A stretch of DNA of 64,000 nt, from the NCBI GenBank assembly GCA_030704615.1, contig CM060731.1, forward strand, positions 52,514,001-52,578,000, written 5' to 3'. The DNA comes from Takakia lepidozioides (taxonomy: Eukaryota > Plantae > Bryophyta). The notes under the pieces were generated by a model that was not told where the DNA came from, searched no databases, and saw nothing but the letters and a program-made list of their open reading frames with translations. A program made the position numbers and the translations under genes. Positions 1-48,800 of this stretch are shown here, piece after piece (positions within the stretch are counted from its first letter, which is position 1; each line of letters starts with the position of its first letter).

Positions 1-361
1 ATCGTGTGCCGACAATTCAATTCAATTGCAAATTAGGGTTAATTCAATTGAATTGCCCTTGCAATTCAATTCAATTGCGCACCTTTAGGGGGTGATCAAG
101 TGAATTGCGATGCATTTCACATCAAGGCCTTTTTGGAATTCCCTACTTGTCCGCTTGAAGTCGGTTTGCAAGATGGTGGAATTCCCTCCCATCTACTACC
201 AGTTTCCAACTAACTCTGTCAGCCCCTCCCTCTTCACGAATGATCATACCTCAGACCCTGATTCCGTACAGAGGTTTCGTGGGATTCCTCGACAGATTCA
301 AGAAATACCAAGACCCACTGCTCACATAGCTCACATCAACAGAGCTCAAGTCGATTCCATT

Positions 362-18901: not shown

Positions 18902-19228
18902 TGTCAAGTTATTTTACCACTAGTGTGAAACTAGCTAGGAAATAGCTAGCTTTTACATATTGACATTTGGGATTGGCCCAAGTGTCAATCCAGGGGTCAA
19001 AGAAGATTTAGGCCCTGGACTGGTTATCTTCACGGCAAGCGCGGAAGGCTCATCTTTCTCGAGTTGAGCCTCACCGCGCCTAGCTATGGCACTGTAGTGT
19101 GGATTCCCCATGGCGTGGGGTGCACTTGGCTTGACTTGTATTTGAGTGATGAGGTTATATATGCATGAGTTTATGCTTCAGCTTTGTGAGTTCGCATGAG
19201 CTTGTGCTTGTATTCTTCTTCTTTATCA

Positions 19229-19240
19229 CTCGAGAAAGAT
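19229..19240 (+). promoter_or_regulatory. Putative self-priming PBS CTCGAGAAAGAT
   Basis: Perfect complement of 19052-19063 (ATCTTTCTCGAG) inside repeat A; no TGG tRNA-type PBS. Confidence 0.7.
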
Positions 19241-21995: not shown

Positions 21996-22842
21996 CTGTG
22001 GGACTATGACGGCTGTGACCAGTGAGCTGTGTGGGCCTGTGCTGGTCTGTGGTGGCCCGTGTTGACCTGTGGACGGCCTGTGCTGACTCGTGGAGGCACT
22101 GGTGGACTGCCTAAGGACTGGCATGTGGTCTGGAAGGCCGAATTTTGAAGCTCGTGGAGGGCGGTTTGAGGAGTATCTTCATGATATTCCCATGGTCATG
22201 CAAGTGAGGGAAGAGAGGAGAGGAAGAGTGTTGGGATGAGGGCATGCTGGGGTTAGGCATTGCTTTAGCTTCTCTTCCTCGTAGTTTCCACCCTCTCATT
22301 AGACCAAGACCTTTCCGTAGGTGGAGGCAAGAGTCAGTCCGGGTTTGGGCTGGGGTGTCCTTGCAGGAGCAACACCATGGAGATGTTTTTGGTGTGGGGG
22401 AGTTGTCGTTCTGATTTCTTGTGTTTGGATCCCCTCCATACCTGCATGCTTGACTGTGCATCATGCTAGTTTTGTGTGGGCGCTTGTTTTTATAGGTGAT
22501 TGGTCCGGATTTGATCACCGGCCAGTCTTAGAGCATGTTGTCGATGGTGAGGTTGGGGTGATGACCAGCCAGACCATCAATGTTTCTCCTGTGGTGAGGT
22601 TGGAGGTGATGACCAGCCAACCATAGGAGTGCTTGCGGTGGATGCAGGTACAGGTGTAGGCTATGTTAGGAACTTAGTATTCCAAACCATAAGCCGCAAC
22701 AGGTTCTCTACCCGGTTACCTTGTGGAGAGGGGGTTAGGGACATGTTCATGACCGGTTGAGTGTCAACACGGAGGTGCCACTAGTTGTTGGGACAGTGCC
22801 GGTTCGAGCACTAGCGATACTAGTGGGTACACGAGACGAGGT

Positions 22843-25317
22843 GTGCGGTTTAGGCCACCTTCACCTCCTGTGTTTTCCACGGAAGGTTCTGATTCGGATT
22901 GTGAATCAGGAGGACTCATACCGGCGGTGCAAGTTGTTTCTTTGTCATTGTTGTGGGACACAATGGAGGAGATGTATGGAGCTACCAAGGGGCCACGAAG
23001 GTACTCTAGGGTGGTGGGCACCATCGAGTTGGATGATTTTATCCAAGAGTTTGATAGTTGGTGTGATTTGCAGCAAATGCGCAATCCACAACTATTTACG
23101 CCTTTCATGGCATGGAAGGGGCTGTTTCAGCACCTTGAGGGGCCGCCTATGGATGATTACCATGAGTTCAGGCGGGGGCATGAGGTTGAGATCGAGGAGT
23201 GGAGGATGTACTGGTCACCCAACTATGTCTCCACTAGGGGCACTAGAGCCACAAGGGCAGTGGCTGCACCTGCCGCTGCACCGGCAGCTTCAGCAAGTAG
23301 CAGAGGGACTAGTGGGACTGGTGGTACAGTAGCTACGATGTCCACCCAAGCCACTACCGCATCAGCACTAGTACCCGTACCTGCCTTCAACCCTGTTGTG
23401 GAGTTCTTCGAAGAGTTGAGATGGAACTACCAAGGGGTGAGGACAGAGAAGTTGCGGAGCTTGCAAGAGTTCCAACGGAAGCCGACCGAGAGCTTGAGGG
23501 AGGCTTTCACTCGCATGAGGCGCTTGATAAATGTAACCCAAGGGGTTACGGAAGCTCAGGCAGTCCAATTCTGGTATGGGATATTGGACAAGGAGCTGAG
23601 GAGAAGGGTGCGGGATGCAACTCTCCTACAAGTGGCCTAACCCACCTTAGCAAATGTGTTTTTGCTGGCAGAGCGGATAGAGCTCAACATGGTGGAGGAA
23701 CGAGTGGTCATGGTGGGATTTGCTAAGGAGACGCCACGGGGTAGTGGTGCTCCTAGCCAACCACTACCTCAACGTGCTCAAGGCAACAAGGGGGCTCAGG
23801 TGAAGCTCAGGGAAGGGCAGAGAGGACCTCAGATGCAGGGGTCTCTCCCTTCATTTGCTGGCCAACAACGGGCGGATGTGGTGTGCTGGACATGTGGAGG
23901 ACCCCATGTCAAGAAGGATTGTCCAGAGGGAGGCAAAGGGCCGGCACATGCACAGCCTGCACAGTTGCAGTGTGGGCATTGTGGCAAGCACGGGCATGGA
24001 GAGGCCCAGTGTTATGGTTTGCATCCTGAGTTGCGCCTAGGTCAGTTCCAAGGGAATAATGGTGGCCGGGGGCGAGGTGGAGCAGCCCAGAGAGGACGAG
24101 GTGGCCAGCCACGAGGTGCAGGCCAAGGCCAAGCTCAACATGGCCAAGGACGCGGAGGTCAGGGTGTTGACCAAGGCATGGCCAACCGGCTTCAACAGCT
24201 AGAGCAGAGGCTCGCTGCCATGGCTACAGCTCAGGTGGTACCGGCTCTAAGGCCGGATGGTCCACCTCCTGTTCCTGAGGGAGGAGATATGGGAGGCATG
24301 GGATTCATGTGTGGAGCAGCACTACCACTAGTGCAGGTGGAGTCTGCTGCAGCCGTGACTCGAGGAGCAGCACGAGTTCCTGAGCCACGAGGTACAGAGG
24401 TGGAGTTGGATCCACAGCGTGGGGAGGCAAGCCGTCAGGCTAGGCTTCCTCAGTCATTCACATTGGCGGAGACAATGTCGACGCCATCCATGGCACCTAG
24501 TTCTCGCCCGACTGTTACCGAGGCGGAGGTTACTATGCCATTGGGGAGAGCTACACGGGTAGCAGCACTACCTAGTGTTGCCAAGGCTACGGCAGCTAGT
24601 GTGCTGCTAAGAGCGGCCACATCTGTGTGCCAGGCTCCATTGTTCTCGGCTACCATGATTACGACGCCGGGGGTAAGACCAGCTGAGGTGTTCAGGCTGG
24701 CAGCTACACTCTATGAGAGTGGGGAGGTTACTTCATCTTCTGCGGAGATAGTAGGAGGTGTAGTGCCGGAGGGATCCTCGGATTTGAGGGTCAATACTGC
24801 CACGGCGGCGCCATGGCAAGCTGCAGCTACCAGGTTGATGGAGCTGCCAGCTAGGCCAGCCATTGAGCGCGCCATGGTGACACCTGGAGTTGTCATGTTA
24901 GACAACCAGGATGGCATTTTCTGTTTGAGTGGACCGGCAGGCAAGAGGTACCGGCCACTGCGGGTCTTGTTGGACTCGGGAGCTCAGCCATTGATGCTGG
25001 GCAGAGCTGCTATTGCAGGCTTGGGCCTCACGGAGGCGGATATGGAGCCTTGTCCTTTCCAGATACAGACGTCTCTGGGAGGATCGGAGCAGGCTCGGGG
25101 CATGACACGGCATGAGTTGGCTATCAGACTACGGCCGGATCACCCTACAGATGGCTCAGTGATGCGAGCCAAGGCCATTGTGACAGACGCAGTATCATAC
25201 GATGTCCTGGTTGGTGGGGCAGTGTTGTACCCCATGGGCTTCACCCTTGGGAGGAGTCAGCTTCCTATAGGCCTGCATGGCAGTCAGGGGAGGGCCGGCG
25301 TGTGCAGCTCCCTGTGA
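22843..25317 (+). pseudogene. gag (two zinc knuckles) plus aspartic protease of copy 1
   Basis: CWTCGGPHVKKDC and CGHCGKHGHGEAQC; LLDSGAQP protease motif at about 24967-24990; CAA>TAA stop at 23638; frameshift near 25250. Confidence 0.85.
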
Positions 25318-26927
25318 CGTTCATAGGAGGAGTTGCGGTTGCCCAGCGAGGCAAGATGCCGACACTAGCAGCATTCACAGCGGCAGTGAGTTGGCCTAGA
25401 GAGTTGCTTGAGGGCAATGCTCATTCAGAGGATGTACCACCTCCGAGAGAGCAAGATGACATGTATGGTATGGCGGAGTTGCCTACCATGGTTGCTCAGA
25501 CTCCATTGTGGGGCACGAGCAAGGATTTGCAGCGGGATGCTGATCGACGGGTGCAACAAGCCTGGGTGGAGGCTTTTGTACCGTCAAGAGAGGAGGAGAG
25601 TGCGGGGATTGCACCAGGACCACCTCAGTTGTCTCCATTGGACATCACACCTATTGTGTGGCAGTATCCGGATGAAGGCATTTATCTTCTGGACTTGTTT
25701 GGCGGGATCAGCACCGGATTGGCTGTTGTGTTACAGGCAGGTGTACGAGTTCGGCGTTACCTGTATGTGGAGAGGGATGAGACTGCACGACGCGTTTCAC
25801 TTCGCCATGTTGCTCAGTTGGTGCAGCGGTACCCTGAGTTGTTGTCGGTGTCTGCAATTTGTGGATATCAGCAGGCCTTGCCAGCAGACATTTCGTTGCT
25901 GGGGGCGCAGGATTTGGAGCGGGTTGGCTCCATTGATTTGGTAGTGGCAAGTTGGCCCTGCCAAGGGCATTTATCAGCCGGGCATGGCAATGGATTGCGA
26001 GACTCGAGGTTGGGTCTGTTTCGGGAGATAGTGCGGATTTTGCGCCACTTGCAGCTTCATCAAGCTGTATCTCCAGCATACATCTTGGAGAATGTGCCAC
26101 TGATGGGCGATTCTCGGGCCAGGGTGATGGCCAGTGTGCATCAAGTCCGGTCGTGGCTTGGGTCAGCAGTGTTGCTAGATGCAGCTACAGTGGGGTCACG
26201 GGCTCATCGTCCACGGCTATGGTGGACTAACTTGATGCCACCCGCACTGCTCAAGCGTGCATTTGATGGGGTGCAGTGGCCAGCACATCTCACAGTGGAT
26301 AACATTCTGGACACAGGGAGGCAGTCTCAGCGTGTGAGACACGATGACCGTTCGCCTTTGGCAGTGGTCAACAAGGTGGGTCAACCACGGGCAGCATTAC
26401 CTACACTGCTCAGCTTCCCAGGATCGCATGCTTTCCGGGATAGTGGACCTGGCCTCCTGTGGGATGCTCAGTTGCAGCAGTTAGTGGAGCCTAATGCTGA
26501 CGAGCGTGAGCGGGCAATGGGTTTTACCACTGGTACCACGGCGGTGTCGTCTCTTTCTGAGGCATCACGTCGTCAAGTGTTGGGGCAAGCAATGGATCTC
26601 AATTGCTTGACCTGGATTATCAGCTTGGCTCTGGCTGAGCAACGCAGAGTGCGGAGTACACTTCCCTCAATGGTCTCTCTGCCTACCGAGACGGTACAGG
26701 CAGTGAGTGGGGGCGAGCATGTGAGGACCACGGGGTGCATGCATCCATGGCACACGTGGGAGGTGCTCGAGGTTCAGAGGGAGTTGGCAGCCAAGGCGGC
26801 TGTGATGGATGAGGTTGGGGATTCTTCTCGGGTTGATGAGGTCCTCAAGGATGAGATGATGGGGCAGGATGAGGCCTTGTCATTGACTGAGCAGGCAGGG
26901 AGTACTGCTCAAGAGGTTGCGGCATAG
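25302..26927 (+). CDS. C5 cytosine DNA methyltransferase domain (DNMT3-like, non-permuted) inside the pol polyprotein
   Basis: Motif I LDLFGGISTG, II VERD, III ADI, IV SWPCQG (catalytic PC), VI ENV, VIII AHRPRLWWTN, IX ERERAMGF, X LGQAMD; core about 25680-26640. Confidence 0.9.
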   Translation: MQLPVTFIGGVAVAQRGKMPTLAAFTAAVSWPRELLEGNAHSEDVPPPREQDDMYGMAELPTMVAQTPLWGTSKDLQRDADRRVQQAWVEAFVPSREEESAGIAPGPPQLSPLDITPIVWQYPDEGIYLLDLFGGISTGLAVVLQAGVRVRRYLYVERDETARRVSLRHVAQLVQRYPELLSVSAICGYQQALPADISLLGAQDLERVGSIDLVVASWPCQGHLSAGHGNGLRDSRLGLFREIVRILRHLQLHQAVSPAYILENVPLMGDSRARVMASVHQVRSWLGSAVLLDAATVGSRAHRPRLWWTNLMPPALLKRAFDGVQWPAHLTVDNILDTGRQSQRVRHDDRSPLAVVNKVGQPRAALPTLLSFPGSHAFRDSGPGLLWDAQLQQLVEPNADERERAMGFTTGTTAVSSLSEASRRQVLGQAMDLNCLTWIISLALAEQRRVRSTLPSMVSLPTETVQAVSGGEHVRTTGCMHPWHTWEVLEVQRELAAKAAVMDEVGDSSRVDEVLKDEMMGQDEALSLTEQAGSTAQEVAA

Positions 26928-27232
26928 CAACCACGGGATGTGTCCTCTACCTCTAAGTCTGCTGGACTTAAGGTTGCAGTTACGAAGGGCAATTGGGAGC
27001 TTGACATTGGACCTATTGTCACTAGAGGAGAGAGACGACGTATACGGCGGTTCCTGAGGCTTACAGGAATTGCTTTGCCTCTCGTGCTACGGTGGATGAG
27101 CATGAGAGACATGTTCAGGTTGTGCATCGATTGGGTTTGGTCAATAGGGATGCGGATGGATTGAGTCGCAATCCATGCACGAGCCAGTAGGATGACACTG
27201 GAGCTCGGTGGCATGGTGAGACGGACGAGGAG

Positions 27233-28813
27233 ATGGTGCCGGGATGGCACGCATCTACATTTTTGTGTATCTTGGCATCGGGAGGTCAGATTGGACCTAC
27301 AACAGGGATGACTGTAGACGGAGTGTCTGAGGACCCTGAGGCTAGTGATGAGCTAGGTGGTGCCAGAGATATACATGAGGATTCGGCTGTGTTGGACTAC
27401 CTCCGCACGGGAGACACGGCAGCCATTGTGACTGCCAGGGAGAGGGATCGGATCCTGCAACGAGCCAAGAGGTTCAAGTGGGAGGGGATACACCTACTTC
27501 GAGTGTGGGAGGATGGTCGGGTGAGGATTGTGCCTCACCCCACACAGCGTGCACGGTTAGTGCGGCATGCCCATGAGGAGTTGGGGCATTTTGGAGTGCG
27601 ACGCACTCACAGTTTACTGCAGGGGCAGTATTGGTGGCGTGGTATGCATACAGAGGTGCAACAGTTCATGGCTAGGTGCATGGTGTGTGACAGGGTGCGT
27701 GCTTCATTCAACGCCCCTACACCACAGTTGCATCCTTTACCAATCATGGGATTGGGCTACAGGTGGAGTCTTGACTTCGCAGGACCGTTGCCACTGACTA
27801 TGCGCCACCACATATATGTGTTGGTGATGGTGGAGCACTTCTCCAAGTGGATTGAGTTGGTTCCATTGCCTGACAAGGCTAGTGAGGGGGCTGCGTATGC
27901 ATTCTTGGATCGTGTGCTTAGCCGATTTGGTGCTCCAGCTGAGGTACTCACGGACCAAGGGAGAGAGTTCTTGGGGGAGTTTCAGGCTTTGTGTGATAAA
28001 GCCTTGATAGACCACCGCACCACTTCTCGGGATCATCCTGAGGCCGATGGCTTAGCAGAGAGCGTTGTTCAGACGGTGAAGAGGGGTTTGCGCAAGTATG
28101 GCTTGCAGAAGGGACACCTAGGAGATTGGGATCTTCAGGTTCCTTGGTTAGCCATGGGCTACAGGTTCAGCAAACAAGCATCACTTGCCTCCTTCTCACC
28201 ATATTTCCTTCTCTTTGGCCGAGAGCCGGATTTGCCTGCAGCCATTCGTAGGGACACTGCTCAAGTCCTTAACCTTGGCGACCCGGACGTGTGGGTACGT
28301 GCATGTAATCAGCGTGCAGAGTTGTTCAAGAAAGTCATGCCCATGGCTTTTGAGAACCTTGCCATTGCACAGCACCGTGATACGTTGAGGTATGCCACTA
28401 TACGTGGTGGAGGATATCGTCCTGGGGTTCGGAGGTTTAGCCCTGGTGACTATGTTTATTTGCACCAGACTGCTCCTACGACTCTGGATGTTACTGCAGG
28501 GTGTGTTATTCTGAGGGTTCGAGAGGTGTTGCCCTCAGGGGTCCTGATCTTGGAGGGTCGGGATGGCATGACTTGGAAGGACCATGTGCGTAATTGTGCG
28601 CCATGTCACCTTCCCAATGTCGATGGCAGAGTTGACCCAAACTTGGCAGTGGTACCTGCAGGTTTGAGGTGCATGTTGTGTGGGTCTGCCAAAGAGGCAG
28701 CCACCATGCTGGTGTGTGATCGATGCTCAAGGGGTTGGCATATGGGATGCTTGACACCACCTCTTGAGAAGGTTCCTGACGGAGATTGGTTGTGTCCACA
28801 CTGCTTGGGATAG
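27233..28813 (+). CDS. Integrase (HHCC, DDE) with C-terminal PHD finger, copy 1
   Basis: HEELGH..CMVC, WSLDFAGP, LTDQGREF, LAE; CMLC..CDRC..WHMGC..WLCPHC (C4HC3). Confidence 0.92.
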   Translation: MVPGWHASTFLCILASGGQIGPTTGMTVDGVSEDPEASDELGGARDIHEDSAVLDYLRTGDTAAIVTARERDRILQRAKRFKWEGIHLLRVWEDGRVRIVPHPTQRARLVRHAHEELGHFGVRRTHSLLQGQYWWRGMHTEVQQFMARCMVCDRVRASFNAPTPQLHPLPIMGLGYRWSLDFAGPLPLTMRHHIYVLVMVEHFSKWIELVPLPDKASEGAAYAFLDRVLSRFGAPAEVLTDQGREFLGEFQALCDKALIDHRTTSRDHPEADGLAESVVQTVKRGLRKYGLQKGHLGDWDLQVPWLAMGYRFSKQASLASFSPYFLLFGREPDLPAAIRRDTAQVLNLGDPDVWVRACNQRAELFKKVMPMAFENLAIAQHRDTLRYATIRGGGYRPGVRRFSPGDYVYLHQTAPTTLDVTAGCVILRVREVLPSGVLILEGRDGMTWKDHVRNCAPCHLPNVDGRVDPNLAVVPAGLRCMLCGSAKEAATMLVCDRCSRGWHMGCLTPPLEKVPDGDWLCPHCLG

Positions 28814-29252
28814 TGGCAGTGGACATGATTGGAGGCAGCTAACAAGACATGGGAGGCCAAGCTCGTAGGAGTCAATACATGAGATCCCAAGCTCAAGTTC
28901 ACAGGTTGCAAGACGGCGACTAACGATGGGGCAACTCTTGCACCCGGCCTCTTGATCTATCGAGTTTGAGTGTAGTAGGGATAGTGGTGGAGGACTTAGT
29001 GAGGCTATGGTCACTATCACATCTTGTGGCTACCTGGACTTAGAGGGACCTAAGCACCAGCTAGGGGGGCAATTGTGTGGACTAGTGACTGCCATAGTGG
29101 GCAGCATAGTGGCAGCCTAGTGACTGACTAGTTGTAGCCTAGTGGTTGGACTAGTGGTATACTAGTGTGTGGTGTGCACATGTGTTGTGTGGTTTTTGGA
29201 CAGCGATGTAGTTGTGTAGCGATATGTATGCGCACGACAGGACTCCTGAGGG

Positions 29253-30480
29253 TTTTCGACAACGTGCGGTCGCCGCCTCGGCGGTCTGGTGCCGCCCAGT
29301 GGCATCCGTTCCCAACACTTAGTGCATCAACACTCAATCCTGTCGGGGGGGGGGGGGGGGGGGTCAAAGGTGGACGTGGTTGGACGGGGTGGCCCGCGAG
29401 GGGGCAACCCGCGGCACGCCCGACTCGATCCCGGAGTATCAACATCCTCCGCATCACCTAAAATTTGGCCCCGGTCCCTCTACGATTGTGCCCGGCAGCC
29501 TGTATTGGATCAGATGCAATGGGTGGCTCCTCGCCACAAAAAACGGTCGCTCTAGGGCCACAATCGATATGTGGTACTACCTCCCCATCCTCGAGGGAGA
29601 CGGGTCGACGTTTCCTCACCATCGCATCCTAATTAACACACGCCACCAGCATTTTCATTTCTCAAAAACCGTTGGCAAAAAGACCCTATGCCTTAGCCTC
29701 GGGGCTTTCTTGAAATTGGTAACCAAAGACGGAGCATCCCTATGGTGCTAGAGAGCCCAAGACAATAAATCCTTCCTCACGTTCTATCTTCAGGATGCCC
29801 ACACCATGGAAAAATTTGTTGAGACTCAGCGCTTTGCGCTTATCAGATTGAACCACATTTTGGGTACGTGAATCCTAATTACACCGTTTATCCTTTCAAC
29901 CCCAAGACCCACAACCAAAACCGCCAATCCAAAACCCAGCACCATAAAGAAAAACAAACACCCTAACCCAGTACCATATGGAAAGAAACAAAATAAAAAT
30001 AAAAACTAAGAACCCCAAAAGGCCCTAAACCCTAAACCCAGAAAGGCCAGCCGTCGCCTCCTGCGACACCCTCACGTAGCATTTGGTGACGTGTTTTTTC
30101 ATTTTTTTGCGCCGAGGGTCGCACCCTGCGACGGAAAGCCGTCGCGGGAGGCGACGTGTTTTTATTTATGTATGGTGCCGGGGGTTGCAAGCAGCGATGG
30201 CCCGCCGTCGAGATTACCATTTACACATTTCAAAAAAAAGGCGGGGCGCAGGCGTGCGACGGCCGGGCGTCGCACGTAGGCGCCGCGCCCTTTTTTTCCC
30301 CCCCAAGTGCTTGAAGCACCTCCTTCTCCTCCCGTTTTCATTTGTTCTTTGGGAGAGAGGTAGTTCTGAGAGTGGGGTTTAGGGTGGAGGAGAAACGCAC
30401 CTGTTGCTGAGCCCGAGGTGGTCGCAAGGCCCCAAGGAGTTTGCCCCAATGCCGCTCCAACGCCCAAGGTAAGCACCGCC
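29253..30480. mobile_element. Probable CACTA-type subterminal repeat region (terminus missing)
   Basis: gcgac/gtcgc and gacgtgttttt motifs resemble 57990-58690 next to the CACTA terminus. Confidence 0.4.
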
Positions 30481-37350: not shown

Positions 37351-38199
37351 CTCTCTTTTTAACTTTTTCTACCCCCTCTCTCCCTCTATGGGATTTGTTT
37401 TGTGAGCAGCACAAAAGAGAGGAGAGAGAGAGAGAGAGAGAGAGAGGGGGAGCGAGAGGGACAGATCAGGAAACAAAAAAAAAAAAAAAAAAAGATGGGA
37501 GGGGAGTGACTGAGCAGCTGCTGCTCAATCATCCCCCCCCCCACCCATTTTTTTTCATTGTTGTCCCCTCTCTCCCTCTGTCTCCCTCCTCGGAATTGGC
37601 CGGTTGCATCAGTGTTCTTTTCATGTTTTTCCATCTATACCGGATGGATTCTAAACAGTGTTTTCACTTGCCCTATAAAGTTTTTCTATCCATACCGGAA
37701 GATTTACCTGGGTGGACACTAAAATACCTCTAAAAAGGGTCTATAATTTTTCATTCCTCTTTTATTGACTTTCATCTATGTCATGGTTTTAGTCATGGTT
37801 ATCTAGAATTACCTACTTCTAGTTAACTAGGACATTTTAGATATTTATATTTATATTTTGTGTGTTGGGACTTCATTTGGTCTCACATGCCAAGTGAGGT
37901 GTTGAGCCTCACTTGAGACATGGAGATAGGTTTTCCCCTTGTGAGTGTTGAGGAGGCTCATCTTCTTGTAGTTGAGCCTCTATGAGCTTCTCTCACCTCC
38001 ATAGCTCTAGGTATTGAGAGGGAGTGTGTTGAGGGCTTTGTAGGGTGGATTCCTTTAGCAAAGGTGCCATTGGCTTGACTTAGTTTATGTGATAGAGTGG
38101 ATTTCACTTGGAAGGACTAGGGCTTGTTCTTCATGTGATTGCTTCATGCTTTGAGAGCTTTCATTGTCTTCTACTTCTCTCATTTCTCATCTCTTATCA

Positions 38200-38211
38200 C
38201 TACAAGAAGAT
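38200..38211 (+). promoter_or_regulatory. Putative self-priming PBS CTACAAGAAGAT
   Basis: Perfect complement of 37960-37971 (ATCTTCTTGTAG) inside repeat A. Confidence 0.7.
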
Positions 38212-39504
38212 CACCTTATGCTTGTGAGTGCGGAGTGTAAGGATTAGTTTTGCACTTGTATTTTAAAGAGGTTGAGAGCTAGGAGAATTTAGCTCTTGTA
38301 TCACAAGGCTTGCAAGGGGTTGCAAGGAAAGGTGCTCAAGTATTGCATGCACCAAGGAGTTGGAGAGCTTGAGAAGAAAGCTCTTGAGTCACAAGATTTT
38401 GCAAGGATTGTAAGGAGGAAGTCTTATGTGTGTGGAAGCATGGATTCTAGGGTTTGAGAATCCTTTCTATGCATTATGGAGTCGATGGTGTGCGCCATGG
38501 CTTGTGGAGAGTGACTAAAGGCTTGTTAGTGCTCATTTCACTATCAAGCTAGGGTTAAGCAAGTTCAAAGTGTGGATGTTGTGGAAGAGAAGCCAATGAG
38601 CTATATATGCTTGGGCTTGAAGACAACAAGGGCAAGCACTTAGAGAGCACTAAGAAGCTCAAGAGGTTTTGAAAGGGAGCATGTGAAGAAATCTTCCAAT
38701 CATGGTGGTGTGGAGCCAAGCTTAGGGTGCCATTGGAAGGGCTTGGAGAACATGTGGTGGGAAATCCTTGAAGGGAAATCATCATTCAATGTATGCATAG
38801 CTTCACCCTAACTATGTAATGTGACAAGAGGGGGAGGCAATACTTGGCTATTCATGCTCTTGGTAGTGCGAGCTTTGTGGTGGATAGTTGACCAAGCAAG
38901 TGGTGCATGTGTGAAGCATGCTCGCTTGAGTTTGTAAGTTCAAGTTTGAGAAGGGGAGCTCTTGAACTAGCAAGAGGTGAAGGCCTTTGAGATCCATTTG
39001 TGTGTGAAGTGGAGAGGTGTTGATTCATGTTATGATGAAGGAGAGCAACACATAGGCCAAGAGGTCATGAAACATGCATTCAAATGATCACGGGGAGCAC
39101 ATGGATGATGGATTGGTGCAAGACCCCGAATGAGGCATATGGCGTGAGAGTGGGATCCAAGGCGGATTGCTTGGGAGCATTATTGTAAGTGACAAGCATT
39201 GCTCCTACACATTGAGATAATTTGTGTTGATTTGGAGCAATTGTCAAGTGATGAGAAGACAAATGCATGATTGCTCGGCAATGGAGATATGGTAGTTTGC
39301 AATCAAATCCCAAGGACTAGAAGGGGGATTGATTTGGTGGACAATAACTTGCAAGTTGAGTTGGACCACTCTTGGTTGCACATTGGGGTGGAAGAGAGCA
39401 AGAAGATGCCTCTTATGACCACCTAGAGACCATATTTTTGCTTGAGTAGAAGCATAGAAGTCAAGGACTTGCATTCCAGCTCTTCATTACAAACCCTAGT
39501 AGTG

Positions 39505-40050
39505 TATGCTCAGACTATACCTATGTTAGTATACCAAACAGGAGCTTGTCCCTTTGACTATACCTCTGTTGAGGTATCACCATATGTGAACCCTAATGTG
39601 AGACTATACCTCTGTTAGTATACCAAACATGAGCTTGTCCATTTTACTATATCTCTATTGAGGTATCACCATATGTGAACCCTAATCAGCTCAGACTATA
39701 TCTCTGTTAGTATACCAAACAGGAGCTTGTCCCTTTTACTATACCTCTGTTGAGGTATCACCATATGTGGACCCTAATCAGCTCAGACTATACCTCTGTT
39801 AGTATACCAAACAGAACCCTCATTTTCAGACTATACCTCTGTAAAGGTATCATCAACATAAGGGACCCTAGCAGCCTCAGACTATACCTCTGTTAAGGTA
39901 TCAACAGTGAAAGGACTTACTGAAATTTAAGGGCCTTTGGAGGATTGTTTGGAAGATATTTGAGGGCCCTTAGAGGAGTATTTGGAGGATCTTTGGGGTC
40001 CTTGGAGGAGTGTTTGGAGGATCTTTGGGGTCCTTGGAGGACCCTTCGAG
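39505..40050. repeat. Tandem repeats in the 5' leader of copy 2 (about 91-bp gactatacctctgtt units, then about 33-bp tttggaggatc units)
   Basis: Direct reading. Confidence 0.85.
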
Positions 40051-40718
40051 GAGCTTTGGTGGACAATGTTGAAGAGCTCTTGAAGGATTGATTGAGGGAT
40101 ATTGAAGGATACTTGCCACGGCCATACAAGCGAGTGGATAGAGACAGGAGGGAGAGTGGTGGGATGAGAGCATTCTGGGGTTAGGAATTGCTTTAGTTTC
40201 TCTTCTCCATAGTCTTTCACCCTCTCTGTAGGCCAAAACCTTTCCGTAGGTGGAGGCAAGAGTCAGTCCGGGTTTGGGCTGGGGTGTCTTTGCAGGAGCG
40301 ACACTGTGGAGTGTTTTTGGTCTGGGGGAGTTGCTGTCTTGATTTTCTTGTGTTTGGATCCCCTCCACACCTGCATGCTTGACTGTGCGCCATGTTAGCT
40401 TTGTGTGGGCGCTTGTTTTCATAGGAGGTTGGTCCGGATTTGATCACCGGCCAATCCTAGAGTATGCTGTCGGTGGTGAGGCTGGAGTGATGACCAGCAA
40501 GACCACCAGTGTTTCTTCTATGGTGAGGCTGGGTTGATGACCAGCAGACCATAGGAGTGCTTGCGGTGGATGCAGGTGCAGGTACAGGTCTACGTTAGAA
40601 ACCTATTGTTCCTGCTTGAACCAGTAGCCGCAACAGGTTCTTTACCCGGTTACCTTGTAGAAAGTGGGGATTAGAGACAGGTTGACAACCGGTTGGGTTG
40701 TGAGTTTTCATCACGGAG

Positions 40719-42178
40719 GTGCCACCAGCTGCTGAGGGGAGTGCCGGTACAAGCACCAGCGATACTAGTGGGTACACAAGACAAGGTGTGCGGTTTAGGC
40801 CACTTTCACCTTCAGTGTCTTCTGAGGAAGGTTCAGACTCGGAGTCGGGAGGATTCTCGCCGAGGGTGCAAGTCATTTCTGTGCCATTGTTGTGGGACAC
40901 GATGGAGGAGATGTATGGAGCTACCAAGGGGCCACGTAGGTACTCTGGAGCTGTGGGCACCATCGAGCTTGATGAATTTATACAAGAGTTTGACATTTGA
41001 TGTGATTTGCAGCAAATGCGCAATCCACAACTGTTTACGCCCTTTATGGCATGGAAGGGGTTATTCCAGCACCTTGAGGGGCCGCCCATGGATGATTACC
41101 ATGAATTTAGGCGGGGACATGCGGTGGAGATTGAGGAGTGGCGAGAGTATTGGTCACCTAACTATGTCTCAATCACTAGAGGCACAAGGGCAGCGGTGAC
41201 ACCGACAGCTACACAAACATCTCCAACTATAAGCACTAGTAGTGGAACAAGTAGTGCCGGCACTTCTGTAGGTGGTACCAGTTCAAAAGGTGCTACTACT
41301 CCTCCTGCCACAATTACAATACATGTGCCTAGATTCAACCCGGTGGTGGAGTTCTTCCATGAGTTGCGGAGGAATTACCAAGGTGTACGGACAGAGAAGC
41401 TGCGAAGTTTGTAAGACTTCCAGCGCAAATCCAGTGAGAGCTTGCGAGAGGCCTACACTCGTATGAGGCGCTTGATAAGTGTGACCCAAGGGGTTACTGA
41501 AGCTCAGGCAGTCCAGTTTTGGTATGGAATTTTGGACAAGGAGCTCAAGAGAAGGGTGCGGGATACAACCCTATTACAAGCGGCCCAACCCACATTAGCG
41601 GATGTGTTTCTGCTGGCTGAGCGGATTGAGCTCAACATGGTGGAGGAGCGAGTTGTTACCATTGGATTTGGCAAGGACATGCCTGCACAAGGTGCAGCTG
41701 CCAGCCAACAGGTACAAGGGACTGCCCAACAGCGTGGTCAAGGGGGCAAGGTTGCCCAACCCAAGTTCTATGGAGCTTACACGGGACCTCAGGTGCAGGG
41801 GCCCGTGGCATCTTTTGTAGGCCAACAGCAACCAGGGGTGATATGTTGGACATGTGGAGGACCCCATGTCAAGAGAGATTGCCCAGATAGTGGCAGAAGG
41901 CAGGCACAAGCACAGCCTGCACAGTTGCAGTGTGGGCATTGTAGCAAGTATGGGCATGGAGACGCCCAGTGTTATGACTTGCACCCTGAGTTGTGCCCAG
42001 GCCAGTTCCAAGGGAACAATGGTGGCCGGGGGTGAGGTGGACCAGCCCAGAGAGGACGAGGTGGTCGGGCATGAGGTGCAGGCCAAGGGCAAGCTCAACA
42101 TGGCCAAGGACGCGGAGGTCACGGTGTTGACCAAGACATGGCCAACGGCTTCAGCAGCTAGAGCAGAGGCTCGCTGCC
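40719..42178 (+). pseudogene. gag of copy 2, with premature stops
   Basis: Homologous to 22843-24220; stops at 40998, 41412 and 42033. Confidence 0.85.
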
Positions 42179-44749
42179 ATGGCTACAGCTCAGGTGGTAC
42201 CGGCTCCCAGGCGGGATGGTCCACCTCCTGCTCTTGAGGGAGGAGATATGGGAGGCATAGGATTCATGTGCGGAGCAGCACTACCACTAGTGCAGGTGGA
42301 GTCTGCTGCGGCCGTGACTCGAGGAGCAGCACGAGTTCATGAGCCACGAGGTGCAGAGGTGGAATTCGATCCACGGCGTGGGGAGGCAAGCCGTCAGGCA
42401 AGGCTTCCTCAGTTATTCACATTGGCGGAGACAGTGTCGACGCCATCCATGGCACCTAGTTCTTGCCCGACTGTTACCGAGGCGGAGGTTACTATGCCAT
42501 TGGGGAGAGCTACACGTGCAGCACTGACACCTGCTACCAAGGCTAGTGCAGCCGGTGTGTTATTGGGGGCATCCACCTCTGTGTGTCAAGCCCCACTGTT
42601 CTCGGCAACCATGATTGCGACGCCGGGGGTAAGACCGGCTGCAGTGTTCAGACTAGAAGCAACACTCTGCGAGAGTGGGGAGGTCACTTCATCTTCTGCG
42701 GAGTTACTGCAAGGTGTAGTGGCAGAGGGATCCTCGGATTTGAGGGTCAAGACTGCCACGGCTGTGCCATGGCAAGCTGCAGCTGCCAGGTTGACGGAGC
42801 TGCCAGCTAGGCCAGCCTTTGAGCGCGCCATGGTGACACCTGGAGTTGTCTTGTTAGACAACCAGAGAGGCATTTTCACTTTGAGTGGACCAGCAGGCAT
42901 TGAATTGGCTACTGACACGCCAATCTTTCGGAGACCCTATAGATACAGTGACATGAAGAGGTTTTTGATTCAGATGAGAACTCAGGACCTTTGGGAGGCT
43001 GGTTTGGTGGAGCTATCTGGGGGAGAATATGCTTCAGCCATAGTGATGCCAACCAAGAAGGATGTATTTGGCAATTGGACGGAGAGACGTATGTGCGGTG
43101 ATTACCGGCCTGTAAATCGTCAGACCAAGTCCGATAGGTATACCATGCCAACACCAGAGGAGATCTTTGATGCCATTGGGCATGCCAAGGTCTTTAGCAC
43201 GTTGGATTTAAGATCCGGATATCACCAGTTGCCGATCAAGGAGGCGGATAAGCAAAAGACGGCATTCTGGGGGATCAATGAGCACGGGAAGGATTGCCTA
43301 TACCAGTGGCGGTTCTTACCATTTGGGCTTAAGAACACTCCGGCAGAGTTTCAGAGAGTCATGGACAGGATTCTAGCAGGGGTGGAGTTTGCTCGGTGCT
43401 ACATAGATGACATCATTATCTTTAGTGCTACGGTGGAAGAGCATGAGAGACACCTTCAGGGGGTATTTGAGCGCTTGAGGGCGCACGGATTGAAGTTACA
43501 TCCGGGAAAGTGCAAGTTTTTCCACAACCAGATTAAGTATCTGGGTCACATGATATATCCTGGAGGATTGGGGGTACAGCAGACTAAGGTAGAGTCCATT
43601 GCACAGGTTCCACGCCCCATGGATGTGAGCCGAGTTCGAGCTTTCATGGGGTTAGCAAACTATTATAGATGGTTTGTTAAGGGATTTAGTGCCATTGCAA
43701 AGGCTCTAACCAAGCTGACCAAGGTGGACCAGGAGTGGCAGTGGGAAGATGAGCAAGAACAAGCTTTTCAAGAGCTCAAGGCGAGGTTGACCTCGGCGCC
43801 CATCTTGAGACGACCTATCAAGGGGCGTCCTTTTCAGCTGCATACAGATTGGAGCATGCTGGGGCTTGGAGCGGTGCTCACACAGGTGGATGCTGAGGGA
43901 AGAGAGTTCGTAGTGGCTTATGCTAGCCGCTCGAACAACGTTGCAGAGTCTAAATATAGCTCATATGAGGGAGAATGCTTAGCTGCAGTGTGGGTCGTGG
44001 CACACTTCAGGTGCTATCTATACGACAATCTCTTCACCCTTGTCACGGATCACCAACTACTCAAGTGGTTGATGGAGTCAGACAAGCTTACGGGGAAGCT
44101 TGCACGGTGGGCACTCATCCTTCAAGAGTATGACTTTCAGGTGGTGCATCGACCGGGTTTGGTCAATCGCAATGCAGATGGGTTGAGTCGCAATCCATGC
44201 ACGAGCCAGCAGGATGACACTGGAGCTCGGTGGCATGGTGAGACGGACGAGGAGATGGTGCCCGAATGGCATGCATCTGCATTTCTGTGTATCTTGGCAG
44301 CGGAAGGCCAGGTTGGACCTACAACAGGGATGACTGTAGATCAAGTGTCTGAGGACCCTGAGGCCAGCAATGAGCAAGGTGGCGCCAAAGATATACATGA
44401 GGATTCAGTTGTGTTGGACTACCTCCGCACTGGAGACACTGCAGCCACTGTGACTGCCAAGGAGAGGGATCGGATCCTACAACGAGCCAAGACGTTCAAG
44501 TGGGAGGGGACACACCTGCTCCGAGTGTGGGAGGATGGTCGAGTGAGGATTGTGCCTCACCCAACACAGCGGGCACGGTTAGTGCGGCATGCCCATGAGG
44601 AGTTGGGGCATTTTGGGATGCGACGCACTCATAGTCTACTGCAGGGGCAGTATTGGTGGCGTGGTATGCACACAGAGGTGCAACAATTTGTGGCTAGGTG
44701 CATGGTGTGTGACAGGGTGCATGCTTCATTCAACGCCCCTACTCCATAA
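42179..44749 (+). CDS. gag tail fused in frame to reverse transcriptase, RNase H and integrase N-terminus
   Basis: RMCGDYRPVN, LDLRSGYHQ, PFGLKN, YIDD; RNase H TDWS..YASR..ECLA..TDH..NADGLSR; HHCC. Confidence 0.92.
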   Translation: MATAQVVPAPRRDGPPPALEGGDMGGIGFMCGAALPLVQVESAAAVTRGAARVHEPRGAEVEFDPRRGEASRQARLPQLFTLAETVSTPSMAPSSCPTVTEAEVTMPLGRATRAALTPATKASAAGVLLGASTSVCQAPLFSATMIATPGVRPAAVFRLEATLCESGEVTSSSAELLQGVVAEGSSDLRVKTATAVPWQAAAARLTELPARPAFERAMVTPGVVLLDNQRGIFTLSGPAGIELATDTPIFRRPYRYSDMKRFLIQMRTQDLWEAGLVELSGGEYASAIVMPTKKDVFGNWTERRMCGDYRPVNRQTKSDRYTMPTPEEIFDAIGHAKVFSTLDLRSGYHQLPIKEADKQKTAFWGINEHGKDCLYQWRFLPFGLKNTPAEFQRVMDRILAGVEFARCYIDDIIIFSATVEEHERHLQGVFERLRAHGLKLHPGKCKFFHNQIKYLGHMIYPGGLGVQQTKVESIAQVPRPMDVSRVRAFMGLANYYRWFVKGFSAIAKALTKLTKVDQEWQWEDEQEQAFQELKARLTSAPILRRPIKGRPFQLHTDWSMLGLGAVLTQVDAEGREFVVAYASRSNNVAESKYSSYEGECLAAVWVVAHFRCYLYDNLFTLVTDHQLLKWLMESDKLTGKLARWALILQEYDFQVVHRPGLVNRNADGLSRNPCTSQQDDTGARWHGETDEEMVPEWHASAFLCILAAEGQVGPTTGMTVDQVSEDPEASNEQGGAKDIHEDSVVLDYLRTGDTAATVTAKERDRILQRAKTFKWEGTHLLRVWEDGRVRIVPHPTQRARLVRHAHEELGHFGMRRTHSLLQGQYWWRGMHTEVQQFVARCMVCDRVHASFNAPTP

Positions 44750-45835
44750 TTGCACCCTCTTCCGATCATGGGATTGGGCTACAGGTGGAGTCTTGACTTC
44801 GCAGGACCGTTGCCACTGACCATGCGTCACAACAAGTATATGTTGGTGATGGTGGAGCACTTCTCCAAGTGGATTGAATTGGTTCCATTGCCTGATAAGG
44901 CTAATGAGGGAGCTGCGTATGCATTCTTGGATTGTGTGCTTAGCCGATTCGGTGCTCCAGCTGAGGTACTCACGGACCAAGGGAGAGAGTTCTTGGGGGA
45001 GTTTCAGGCTTTGTGTGACAAGGCCTTGATAGACCACCGCACCACTTCTCGGGATCATCCTGAGGCCGATGGCTTGGCAGAGAGAGTTGTTCAGACAGTA
45101 AAGAGGGGTTTGCGCAAGTATGGCTTGCAGAAGGGACACCTAGGAGATTGGGACCTTCAGTTACCCTGGTTAGCCATGGGCTACAGGTTCAGCAAGCAAG
45201 CATCACTTGCCTCCTTCTCACCATACTTTCTTCTCTTTGGCCGAGAGCTGGATTTGCCTACATCCATTCGCAGAGAAGCTGCTACAGTTCTTAACCTTGA
45301 CGATCCGGACGTGTGGGCACGTGCATGTGAGCAGCGTGCAGAGTTGTTCAAGAAAGTCATGCCCATGGCTTTCGAGAACCTTGCCATTGCACAACATCAT
45401 GATACGTTGAGGTATGCTACCATACGTGGTGGGGGTTATCGTCGTGGGGTTCGGAGATTCAACCCTGGTGACTATGTTTATCTGCAGCAGACTGCTCCTA
45501 CGACCTTGGATGTGACTGCAGGACGTACTATTTTGAGGGTTCGAGAGGTGTTGCCCTCAGGAGTCCTGATCTTGGAGGGTCGGGATGGCATGATTTGGAA
45601 GGACCATGTGCGTAATTGCGCGCCATGTCACCTTCCAAATGTTGATGGAAGGGTTGACCCAAACCTGACAGTGGTACCTACAAGTTTGAGGTGCATGTTG
45701 TATGGGTCTGCTAGAGGGGCAGCCACCATGCTGGTGTGTGATCAATGCTCTAGAGGTTGGCATATGGGATGCTTGACTCCACCTCTTGAGATGGTTCCTG
45801 ATGGGGATTGGTTATGTCCGCATTGCATTGGATAG
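44750..45835 (+). CDS. Integrase core plus PHD finger (second Cys mutated to Tyr), copy 2
   Basis: DDE motifs; CMLY..CDQC..HMGC..CPHC; separated from the upstream ORF by a TAA at 44747. Confidence 0.9.
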   Translation: MHPLPIMGLGYRWSLDFAGPLPLTMRHNKYMLVMVEHFSKWIELVPLPDKANEGAAYAFLDCVLSRFGAPAEVLTDQGREFLGEFQALCDKALIDHRTTSRDHPEADGLAERVVQTVKRGLRKYGLQKGHLGDWDLQLPWLAMGYRFSKQASLASFSPYFLLFGRELDLPTSIRREAATVLNLDDPDVWARACEQRAELFKKVMPMAFENLAIAQHHDTLRYATIRGGGYRRGVRRFNPGDYVYLQQTAPTTLDVTAGRTILRVREVLPSGVLILEGRDGMIWKDHVRNCAPCHLPNVDGRVDPNLTVVPTSLRCMLYGSARGAATMLVCDQCSRGWHMGCLTPPLEMVPDGDWLCPHCIG

Positions 45836-48800
45836 TGGGAGTGGATACAACCATGGAAGGCTAACAAGAAATGCAAGGCCAAGCTACTAGGAGACCAACA
45901 CACGAGATCCTGACTCAAGTTCACAGATTGTAAGACGGCAACTATCGATGGGGTTGCTCTTGTACCCGGCCTCTTGGTCTATAGAGTTTGAGTACAATAG
46001 GGACAGTGATAGAGGACTTAGTACGGCTGTGGCTATTACATCTTGTAGCTATCTGGAGTTAGAGGGACCTAACCACCAGCTAGGGGGGCGATTGTGGTAT
46101 AGCTTTCTAGGATTATGTGCTTAGATTGTGTGGTGGACAGCGATGTATGTTGTGGCACGATGCTTAGGTGCAGGACAGCTGTCATGGTTTTAGTCATGGT
46201 TATCTAGAATTACCTACTTCTAGTTAACTAGGACATTTTAGATATTTATATTTATATTTTGTGTGTTGGGACTTCATTTGGTCTCACATGCCAAGTGAGG
46301 TGTTGAGCCTCACTTGAGACATGGAGATAGGTTTTCCCCTTGTGAGTGTTGAGGAGGCTCATCTTCTTGTAGTTGAGCCTCCATGAGCTTCTCTCACCTC
46401 CATAGCTCTAGGTATTGAGAGGGAGTGTGTTGAGGGCTTTGTAGGGTGGATTCCTTTAGCAAAGGTGCCATTGGCTTGACTTAGTTTATGTGATAGAGTG
46501 GATTTCACTTGGAAGGACTAGGGCTTGTTCTTCATGTGATTGCTTCATGCTTTGAGAGCTTTCATTGTCTTCTACTTCTCTCATTTCTCATCTCTTATCA
46601 TTGTGGTATAGCTTTCTAGGATTGTGTGCTTAGATTGTGTGGTGGACAGTGATGTATGTTGTGGCACGATGCTTAGGTGCACGACATCTATACCAGATGA
46701 GTCACCAGAGAATGAGGAATTACCTCTGTAGGGGTTGTGACACTGACATCCTATCTATAATTTTTCCATCCATGCCAGATGAAAAATACCAAGATTTGAA
46801 TTCGTTTTATTCCTCCTTTATGCCTTTTTTTCCGTATTGGATGAGGCTTTCTCTTAAGAGATGACGAATTACCTGTTAGGATGAGAAATCGCTGCCCTGG
46901 ATGATGTATACTACTTTTTCATCCTGCTGATGGACCTCATCCAAATAAATGAACCTATTTATTTTTTCATCTGAACCGGATGAAAAAAACAGCTTATGAT
47001 GGCCATGGATAATTTTTTAATTGCCCTTAATTATTGCTAATTAAGGAGTGAAACCCTAACTCCTACCCTATAATCTATTGTTTAAACCTAGCTAACGGAT
47101 GACATCCGTCGGGTTTTCGAGATAAAGGGTATTGATTTTTCGTCCTCCGGATGAAAAATCAGGCTCTGCCCTAGGGTGTTTCTCCCGCTGTCAGCTGCAC
47201 TCCTCGTGCTGCTGAGCTCGCGAGTTATGGCGCCTGAGCTCTGCTGCTACCCTGTCTGCTACTTCAAGCCGGACGAGCTCCTGGGGATGCGCAATGGCGG
47301 CGTCTTGTCTCTTCTCACAGGCGGGAGAACCCGTTGTGATGGCATCGTCCCTTTCCCTCCTCTGGCTTTTATGTTTCGCAGCGGCGCTTGGGTGGGGACG
47401 TATATCGCTCTCTCTCCCTTCTTAAACCTAGCATTTGTATGTTTCGCTTCTCCTTAGCTGTGCTGGAGGTGGCGTGTTGGTGGCGATGGCGCAGAGTTAC
47501 CTTCCCCAATAGCTCAAGGTGCTTTTGGTGATTAGGGTTCCTTTTACTTTATATCTTTCTCTCTTGTTTTTGGGGTTCTTAGTTGACATCGATAACAAGT
47601 GTAGGGGTCTGTGATTCACCTGGGGTTCCACAATCCTCACTAACCCATTGGTTTTTGTGGGGGCTTATGATGGGACCAGGTGAGGATCCCTGCTTTGAAT
47701 TTTCTTGAGCTTGCAGATAAGGATGTGTGCAAAAGGAACGTACTGCTGTTGCCTGCAGCCCTGATTTTGGCCCGCTTGCTCCCGGTTTGACATGATGATG
47801 CTTGCTTTTGACTTATCTTTTGCTGCTGCTGATGGAGCATTTCGGCCTAGCAGCCTTGTCTCCTGCAACACAGCATGTGAATCCTACCCTGTCTTGAATC
47901 TTTGACAGCTTTGCCTGTGGATTTTTAGACTAGGTACTTTTTTTTGCCTTAAAATAGGATTGATGGTGTAAGGGTAAAGTCATCAGTGGCTGTTAGGCTC
48001 TAAGGATGAGGAGATCTGGTTTTTGTAAATGAAGACAGACTGATAAGACAATGACAGGCTGTTTGTTGTGGAATGGAGCATAATGAGGCTCTATTTGCAA
48101 AACATGGCAGTAGCCTTCTGTGAAACAGTGAAACAGTGATGGTAAGCTCTAAAGGACTCTGGCCAGTGATTAGTTACCTTATTTTGCCATATGAACAGCC
48201 ACCTCCATTGTATGATTTATCTTGGTTGGTCTTGGGCACTCAAATTGTATGTGTGTCCATATCTGGATGCTGTAACAGGGCAGGCCTTTCTTCCATGCCA
48301 AAATGCCTTACATGATGCATATCTTGGGGCAACTGTACATGATGTAGAATGAAGTCGCGGTCAGTCTTGTCATGCCCAAAGTGATCACTTGGTTGCATGT
48401 TTGGAGTCTGATTTACTGCAGGCTGGGCCAGCAAGAGTCCTATGTACACAGGTCCTGAATATGTACAATGACAGGCTGTTCCTACCTACCCAGAAGGCCT
48501 TGCATGATGCACGCTTTGGGATGCTTACATTTGGCCAAATGTAAAGCTGCAATATAGCTTGCCATGCCCAAGAAGTTTACTTGGTGGCATGCCCGAAGAG
48601 TAATTAATTGCAGGATGGTCCTTCCAGTTGCTTATGTGAACATTCCCTGAATGTGTTGTAGGGCAGGCTGTTCTTACCTACCTTGCATAATGTTTGTCTT
48701 GGATCACCTCAAGGTACTTGTGTATACATATCTTGGATCTGTAATGTGGCAAGAAGTTCTTATATGCCCATGATATCTTGCATGGTGCATATCTTATGGA

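Follow-up and report, generated by a model that had tools for sequence, protein, structure and literature searches.

Permuted repeats and a likely attachment site at a palindrome inside the long terminal repeat of a self-primed Ty3/gypsy family in the moss Takakia lepidozioides

The window analyzed here is a stretch of 64,000 nucleotides from the moss Takakia lepidozioides (GenBank assembly GCA_030704615.1, contig CM060731.1, positions 52,514,001 to 52,578,000 of the forward strand), and it carries three copies, 0, 1 and 2, of a Ty3/gypsy retrotransposon family in which the parts of the long terminal repeat (LTR) are permuted. The order of parts in copy 1, which lies on the plus strand, was obtained by repeat finding and direct reading. 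Behind a target site duplication (TSD) of TCTA (37775-37778) it starts with a repeat, A1, that begins with TGTC (37779-38199), followed by about 7.9 kb of internal sequence, a polypurine tract (PPT; agctaggggggcga, 46078-46091) adjoining a second repeat, B1, that terminates in GACA (46092-46177), a GC spacer separating B1 from A2 (46178-46179), A2 itself (46180-46600), an extra B at the right end, B2, again terminating in GACA (46601-46686), and the second TCTA (46687-46690). A1 and A2 differ by 1 mismatch in 421 bp (99.8% identity), and B1 and B2 by 3 in 86. The palindrome GACA-GC-TGTC (GACAGCTGTC) lies at the B1-A2 joint (J1, 46174-46183), and both inserted ends of copy 1 are halves of it. 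The palindrome is found twice in the window (46174 and 18179) against an expectation of 0.04, and 0 of 100 shuffles gave two occurrences. A preliminary description of this DNA had reported the A-internal-B-A-B layout of copy 1, its TCTA duplication and its palindrome-half ends, all of which our reading confirms.

Public contigs from two runs of one sample, X1 and X4, also contain the site without copy 1. The left flank is joined directly to the right flank in at least 8 X1 contigs and at least 6 X4 contigs, in keeping with the TCTA duplication read from the sequence. Just upstream of the A start at 46180, unlike sequence was found in at least 18 X4 contigs (agreement 0.41). The family is very abundant, as indicated by a very high summed depth in the public contigs. 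Judged by the single mismatch in 421 positions between A1 and A2, copy 1 is the youngest dated copy, and its form is written here as A..BAB; the forms A..B and ABA..B are abbreviated in the same way.

Relatives were collected by scanning metagenome contigs with the Pol frame, which gave 52 loci; in the majority, identity to the query is about 60-80%. Several are duplicate assemblies of one locus (L009=L010, L016=L017, L031=L032, L007=L008, L034=L035, L023=L024 and L036=L049), and L001 is close to L025; all end and joint counts are therefore given for distinct loci, window copies included. Six of 23 3' ends read PPT-B-(GC/AC/AT)-A-B and then flank (window copies 0 and 1, L001/25, L009/10, L016/17, L031/32), fifteen have a B followed by flank, with the PPT directly before B in 14 and an internal deletion there in L028, and two are odd (L018, L023/24). 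All seven readable 5' ends run from flank into A and from A into the primer binding site (PBS). Distinct B starts number 29, and they are preceded by the PPT in 22 cases, by A in six and by an internal deletion in one (L028), with none (0/29) adjoining unrelated flank. Similarly, 15 A ends are followed by the PBS in nine cases and by B in six, and none (0/15) adjoins unrelated flank, while unlike flanks follow 21 B ends. The five complete elements, which have both ends on one record, all start at the A start and finish at the B end. Perfect 4-bp TSDs flank four of them (TCTA, GGAC, TCTC and TGTG) and the fifth matches at 3 of 4 positions, compared to 0 matches in 80 for a control with shifted positions. 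These variable duplications bear out the earlier proposal that the integrated ends fall at the two halves of the inner palindrome. Because the ends, the neighbor counts and the TSDs agree across distinct loci, the layout is a conserved family trait, neither chance nor an assembly artefact. Along with the ends, the PPT, the self-primer described below and the enzyme set, it is conserved in relatives with about 60-80% Pol identity. The preliminary description had named conventional LTRs and misassembly among the readings that would go against its view, and neither was borne out by the neighbor counts or by the recurrence of the layout in separate assemblies. Two of the forms it predicted were found, A..BAB at 6/23 and A..B at 15/23 3' ends, and, as it also predicted, no conventional BA..BA end was seen. 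In two of the four targets with perfect TSDs, CA stands directly before the duplicated 4 bp (37773-37778 and 18896-18901), mimicking the terminal CA of the element; this could be a target preference or chance.

The two joints between the repeats behave differently. At the inner, B-A joint, the core ACA..TGTCA is invariant in 7/7 aligned joints. The outer, A-B joint (J2 in copy 1, between A2 and B2) consists of the U5 end and the first base past the PPT in 4/6 copies, and carries an insert of 12 bp in copy 0 and a mosaic of about 20 bp in L016/L017 (L017 10837-10858) that is pieced together from the start of B and the ends of A and of the PPT. Such a fixed inner and loose outer joint would be expected if A-B were the joined tips of the cDNA and B-A the site of the enzyme. 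At the inserted ends there is a 7-bp terminal inverted repeat (TGTCRTG…CAYGACA); the cDNA tips have only TG…CA in common. One of the odd 3' ends, L018 (3361-3885), has A and PBS followed by an inverted A[~179..1] that finishes at GACA beside the flank. This structure fits a plus strand whose PBS tail snapped back on the primer site, with a later integrase cut at a palindrome half, and it could alternatively be two head-to-head copies recombined at an 11-bp inverted repeat.

Which part of these repeats corresponds to the LTR of reverse transcription is indicated by the positions of the PPT and the primer. The PPT motif occurs three times in the window, once per copy and each time before B. Directly 3' of A1 lies a putative self-priming PBS, CTACAAGAAGAT (38200-38211), to which a site within A, ATCTTCTTGTAG (37960-37971), is a perfect reverse complement; the latter is the predicted first 12 nt of the transcript. 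The primer/PBS pair is ATCTTCTTGTAG/CTACAAGAAGAT in copy 1, ATCTTTCTCGAG/CTCGAGAAAGAT in copy 2 and AGTTCTTTGAG/CTCAAAGAACT in the metagenome family, where the complement is 11 nt long in L034 and 10 nt in L024; across the family it ranges from 10 to 12 nt. Copies 1 and 2 differ at four positions of the pair, all four of which are compensated. The primer site lies just 5' of TTGAGCC in all three versions, the primer-PBS duplex is present in the minimum-energy RNA fold of 4/4 leaders (9-12 of 10-12 pairs), and in the metagenome relatives a TATAAA stands about 30 nt upstream of the primer site. Because the PPT adjoins B and a co-varying self-primer site follows A, the predicted LTR of reverse transcription is fixed as B-GC-A, with U3 made up of B, GC and the first part of A, and with the end of U3, R and U5 in A. 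The preliminary description, in which the PBS was put after A but not named, had arrived at the same unit, and it now has the 22 of 29 B starts adjoined by a PPT and the co-variation behind it. The predicted priming is self-priming of the Tf1 type, in three co-varying versions. In the A of some relatives (L025 2410-2445, L034, L017 10650-10690) a copy of the PBS sequence, CTCAAAGAAC, stands two bases upstream of the primer 11-mer, and CTCAAAGAAC and the primer together give a hairpin where transcription is predicted to begin; CTCAAAGAAC is absent from the window copies.

The coding capacity of the family points to a DDE integrase. In copy 1 a gag-like frame (41001-42035, plus strand), without a Pfam match, is interrupted by an in-frame stop at 41412-41414, and the matching gag open reading frame (ORF) of copy 2 has a weak match to Retrotrans_gag (E 0.0014) that lies under the cutoff. 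The pol frame of copy 1 (42131-44749, plus strand) covers a protease region, reverse transcriptase (RT), RNase H and the H2C2 finger of the integrase (Pfam RVT_1 7.7e-32, RT_RNaseH 3.1e-33, Integrase_H2C2 1.3e-15) and ends at an in-frame stop; its closest solved relative is Ty3 (1.8e-71). The next frame (44750-45835, plus strand) encodes the integrase core, with D, D and E present, and a C-terminal PHD finger (Pfam rve 9.6e-14, PHD 2.3e-9), and matches the Ty3 and PFV integrases. The PHD region, which can be aligned in most relatives, occupies the place of the chromodomain. The order RT, RNase H, integrase is that of Ty3/gypsy elements (Metaviridae), as is the combination of a DDE integrase with short TSDs. 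Identical complete LTRs and insertion at the cDNA tips, as in conventional Ty3/gypsy elements, were not found: the left end has A only and the right end B-GC-A-B or B. Pfam scans of 19 frames from copy 1 and 6 ORFs from copy 2 revealed no tyrosine recombinase domain. These domains, the translation and the variable 4-bp duplications support a DDE integrase rather than a tyrosine recombinase as the predicted enzyme, in agreement with the preliminary description. The stops at 44747-44749 and 41412-41414, in the otherwise young copy 1, part the integrase finger from the core and break the gag-like frame. The leader of copy 1 contains tandem arrays of four units of about 90 bp (39508-39870) and three units of 32 bp (39931-40027).

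Some members of the family also encode a DNMT3-like cytosine methyltransferase. An ORF of copy 2 (25116-26927; 603 codons) is open, matches PF00145 at 9.8e-9 and has the FGG, PCQ and ENV motifs, and its solved relatives in the PDB are DNMT3A/B/C in 27 of 27 cases. In more than 20 relatives (including L002, L003, L006, L012-L014, L017, L019, L020, L022-L024, L027, L028 and L031) a homologous segment of about 2.1 kb separates protease from RT; from copy 1 it has been deleted at 42899/42900.

Taken together, we consider it likely, with a probability of roughly 0.6, that this is a self-primed Ty3/gypsy family whose DDE integrase cuts the cDNA at GACA^GC^TGTC inside the LTR and not at its tips. Within this reading the cutting at the inner palindrome is well supported, and the route through a 2-LTR circle is one that we infer. 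The integrase would nick after CA on both strands of the palindrome, which would leave CA-3'OH ends with 2-nt GC overhangs, much like processed retroviral ends, and would account for the observed loss of the GC on insertion. For a copy to be replicated again, its genes must be flanked by A on either side, and the donor of the A..BAB form would therefore have its cDNA tips already joined as A-B, most simply in a 2-LTR circle opened at the palindrome nearer to the primer site. The A..B form may arise from a 1-LTR circle, from linear cDNA cut at both palindromes, or from later recombination between B and B. Such a copy would be a dead end, unable to found a lineage, because the first strand transfer would find no R downstream. 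HIV-1 integrase tetramers are described as cleaving the palindromic 2-LTR junction internally (PMC1905944), so that the proposed chemistry has a precedent. Broader still, and put forward only tentatively, at somewhat less than even odds, is the view that in an entire lineage of DDE-integrase retrotransposons the attachment site has shifted from the cDNA tips to a palindrome within the LTR, and that tip-joined cDNA, the 2-LTR circle, would hence be an obligatory stage on the way to any copy able to replicate again.

Several observations weigh against the reading that we prefer. The form ABA..B, also predicted in the preliminary description, was found at 0 of 7 5' ends, a small sample of low power in which about 1-2 would be expected; random cutting of a 2-LTR circle predicts parity between ABA..B and A..BAB. 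The A..B form outnumbers A..BAB by 15 to 6, and therefore most insertions need no 2-LTR circle, the count of A..BAB being possibly low because short-read assembly may under-recover this form. In copy 1 the divergence between B1 and B2 (3/86) exceeds that between A1 and A2 (1/421; p ~0.02 by our own estimate), whereas under the model the two pairs should diverge equally. Stops or deletions are present in every relative and every window copy, and no demonstrably active master was seen. Finally, the circle, cDNA and enzyme steps of the model are predictions from sequence. As for the three differences between B1 and B2, copy 1 has minority letters among the public-contig matches listed and the differences look private, and their excess is unexplained. 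B copies across the metagenome family are 91-99% alike, and a comparison of the nearest kinship of B1 and B2 has no power.

The palindrome may be cut as proposed while the A-B joint arises during reverse transcription, by end-to-end template switching or in concatemeric cDNA, and not by nuclear ligation; the element would then be cut out of an over-long linear cDNA, as it would be by a cut-and-paste transposase. The mosaic insert of L016/L017 resembles template switching, the inverted A of L018 fits a plus strand that kept its PBS tail, snapped back and was extended, and the absence of ABA..B from the seven 5' ends fits a directional process. However, four of the six A-B joints are simple tip-to-tip joints for which ligation is the simplest origin, no concatemer was seen, and L018 can also be read as two recombined head-to-head copies, and we regard this course of events as unlikely. 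We give still less weight to the idea that A..B is the sole primary product, made by cutting both palindromes of linear cDNA or the one palindrome of a 1-LTR circle, with A..BAB copies as rare by-products; the family would then be kept up mainly by those A..BAB copies or by transcribed episomal circles resembling those of pararetroviruses. The prevalence of the single-B 3' end (15/23) and the TSDs of such copies (copy 2, L019) are in its favor, and a 1-LTR circle would yield terminally redundant RNA, as in caulimoviruses. Yet an integrated A..B copy lacks the downstream R, B x B recombination after insertion also yields A..B, the youngest dated copy has the form A..BAB, and this form is kept across the diverged subfamilies of the window and the separately sampled metagenome relatives (about 60-80% Pol identity).

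The remaining alternatives concern the enzyme and the layout itself. The A-genes-B-A-B order is the split direct repeat layout of PAT, Toc, Ngaro and Viper (PMC4157794), and circles could be inserted in the DIRS/Ngaro manner by a tyrosine recombinase supplied in trans, in which case the encoded integrase would not set the ends. We find this highly improbable: no such domain was found in the scanned frames of the element, insertion removes the GC between the palindrome halves, and 4/5 complete copies have variable 4-bp TSDs of the kind left by a staggered DDE cut and not by recombination at a shared core. The extreme repetitiveness of the family invites misassembly, yet the layout occurs in two window copies of different subfamilies and in four further metagenome loci from separate assemblies, with precise ends, TSDs and known empty sites, which leaves next to no likelihood that the arrangement was produced by misassembly or by a single rearrangement of an otherwise conventional LTR element. 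Other divisions of the repeats were tried and rejected. An LTR consisting of A only does not fit the TSD and the PPT, there being no purine-rich sequence before A2, and B, not flank, after A2. A conventional LTR of A+B fails in that what comes after the 5' A is the PBS instead of B, and in that the PPT leads into B instead of A. An insertion of the genes into a tandem A-B/A-B array was rejected since no TSD is found at the A-genes and genes-B joints.

The repeat layout is already in print for the streptophyte Gypsy-DNMT3 lineage. The repeats of KnitGypsy-Dnmt3 from Klebsormidium nitens are said to be 'the same as that of a DIRS retrotransposon', in an element with Gypsy domains (de Mendoza et al. 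2018, PMC5890265, legend of Fig. 4c), and the view in the preliminary description that A..B-A-B repeats are not typical of DDE-integrase Gypsy elements is outdated by that legend. The name 'streptophyte Gypsy-DNMT3' covers this element, which is named again in a preprint (10.64898/2026.05.21.726589). Compared by published description, it shares with the Takakia family the A-coding-B-A-B repeats with Gypsy domains and a DNMT3-like cytosine methyltransferase lodged in a Gypsy-type Pol, as seen in copy 2 and more than 20 relatives; the two differ in their hosts and in that copy 1 lacks the DNMT segment. Because a DNMT3-like domain of the same kind lies inside a Gypsy Pol, the domain evidence places the Takakia family with the streptophyte Gypsy-DNMT3 elements. 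The accessible text of PMC5890265 gives no mechanism, TSD, palindrome, primer site or PPT for KnitGypsy-Dnmt3, and beyond its one-line remark on the layout our search, which did not extend to subscription journals and supplements, turned up no published account of mechanism, inner palindrome or TSDs for elements of this kind. As far as we could find, what is new is the attachment site at a palindrome inside the LTR, shown by the ends and the TSDs, and the co-varying self-primer that fixes the LTR of the cDNA; the step through a 2-LTR circle would be a good inference from these.

In the Tf1/Tf2 and Tf1/sushi-Tcn1 elements the PBS is complementary to a site inside the LTR, taken as the 5' end of the RNA, and not to a tRNA, and the moss and club-moss elements of the Tcn1 clade are predicted to use self-priming of the Tf1 type (Neumann et al. 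2019, PMC6317226). The Takakia family has the same kind of self-priming PBS adjoining the LTR, but its repeats are permuted and it has a PHD finger, in place of the conventional LTRs at either end and the chromodomain of those elements. With PAT, Toc, Ngaro and Viper it shares the A1-genes-B1-A2-B2 split direct repeats (PMC4157794), which are topologically a circle with two B-A units opened at a B-A joint. Those elements have a tyrosine recombinase, whereas the Takakia family has a DDE integrase and 4-bp TSDs. To our knowledge PAT, Toc, Ngaro and Viper make no target duplications. The likeness to the cleavage of the retroviral 2-LTR junction is that there, too, a restriction-like cut of a CA..TG palindrome by the integrase turns a circle into a linear form ready for integration (PMC1905944). 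In retroviruses, however, the palindrome is the LTR-LTR joint of the cDNA tips and linear cDNA is the normal substrate, whereas in the Takakia family the palindrome is internal to the LTR and the tip-to-tip A-B joint is left uncut. Internal cleavage of the palindromic 2-LTR circle junction has reportedly also been seen with the foamy virus integrase.

If the inner palindrome is indeed where the integrase acts, not every LTR retroelement would follow the rule that attachment takes place at the cDNA tips, and 2-LTR circles, usually viewed as dead ends, would be obligatory intermediates in the Takakia family. It would provide a mechanism for the DIRS-like repeats reported in a Gypsy element in 2018 and so far unexplained, and would show a route by which a DDE enzyme and a tyrosine recombinase reach the same repeat layout. 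The family would then be a natural working version of the old model in which circles are the integration precursor, and a case of Gypsy convergence on the DIRS/Ngaro life style. There is a practical consequence for annotation as well: because A alone starts with TG and ends with CA, LTR finders will take A1 and A2 as the LTR pair, so that the TSD is missed and the PPT and the element end are misplaced.

The other two copies in the window are nested. Copy 0 (17678-18901, minus strand) is truncated at its 5' end and consists of the 3' end of the integrase, the PPT, B1 (18374-18185), GC, A (18182-17856), a 12-bp insert (17855-17844) and B2 (17843-17678). The preliminary description was right in giving it the B-GC-A-B end and the palindrome at 18179; its B copies are 190 and 167 bp long and not 165 bp, and the insert, which makes the A-B joint not clean, had been missed. 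The insert (17844-17855, minus strand) has the same length as the primer site and, read as its reverse complement, agrees with the PPT at 9 of 12 positions. It was also compared with the PBS and rejected as a copy of it (3/12 positions match).

Copy 2 (18902-29239, plus strand), absent from the preliminary description and recognized by BLAST of the element against the window, has the form A..B and is inserted within copy 0, flanked by a TSD of GGAC (18898-18901 and 29240-29243). It begins with the TGTC of its A (18902-19228), followed by the PBS (19229-19240), and finishes with the GACA of its single B (29072-29239), directly before which stands the PPT. Both copy 1 and copy 2 show the target without an insertion (…ccctcaggagtcctgatcttgg…) at the corresponding position, so that the insertion is exact to the base. 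In order from the left, copy 2 encodes gag, a protease region, the DNMT3-like ORF and integrase-PHD. Copy 2 has kept long open frames, namely gag (22753-23640), a further frame (23641-25317), the DNMT3-like ORF and an integrase-PHD frame (27191-28813), all on the plus strand. It is without the RT/RNase H region, and either was mobilized in trans or lost this region by a later deletion.

The B-end pattern was also used in a scan of viral contigs, which gave 0 matches. The long 5' leader of copy 2 includes a tandem array of some 1.4 kb (20640-22020), built of GC-rich units about 20 bp in length. Between copies 2 and 1 lies unrelated repeat-rich DNA with a run of 19 G (29345-29363) and a short telomere-like CCCTAAA repeat (30023-30039).

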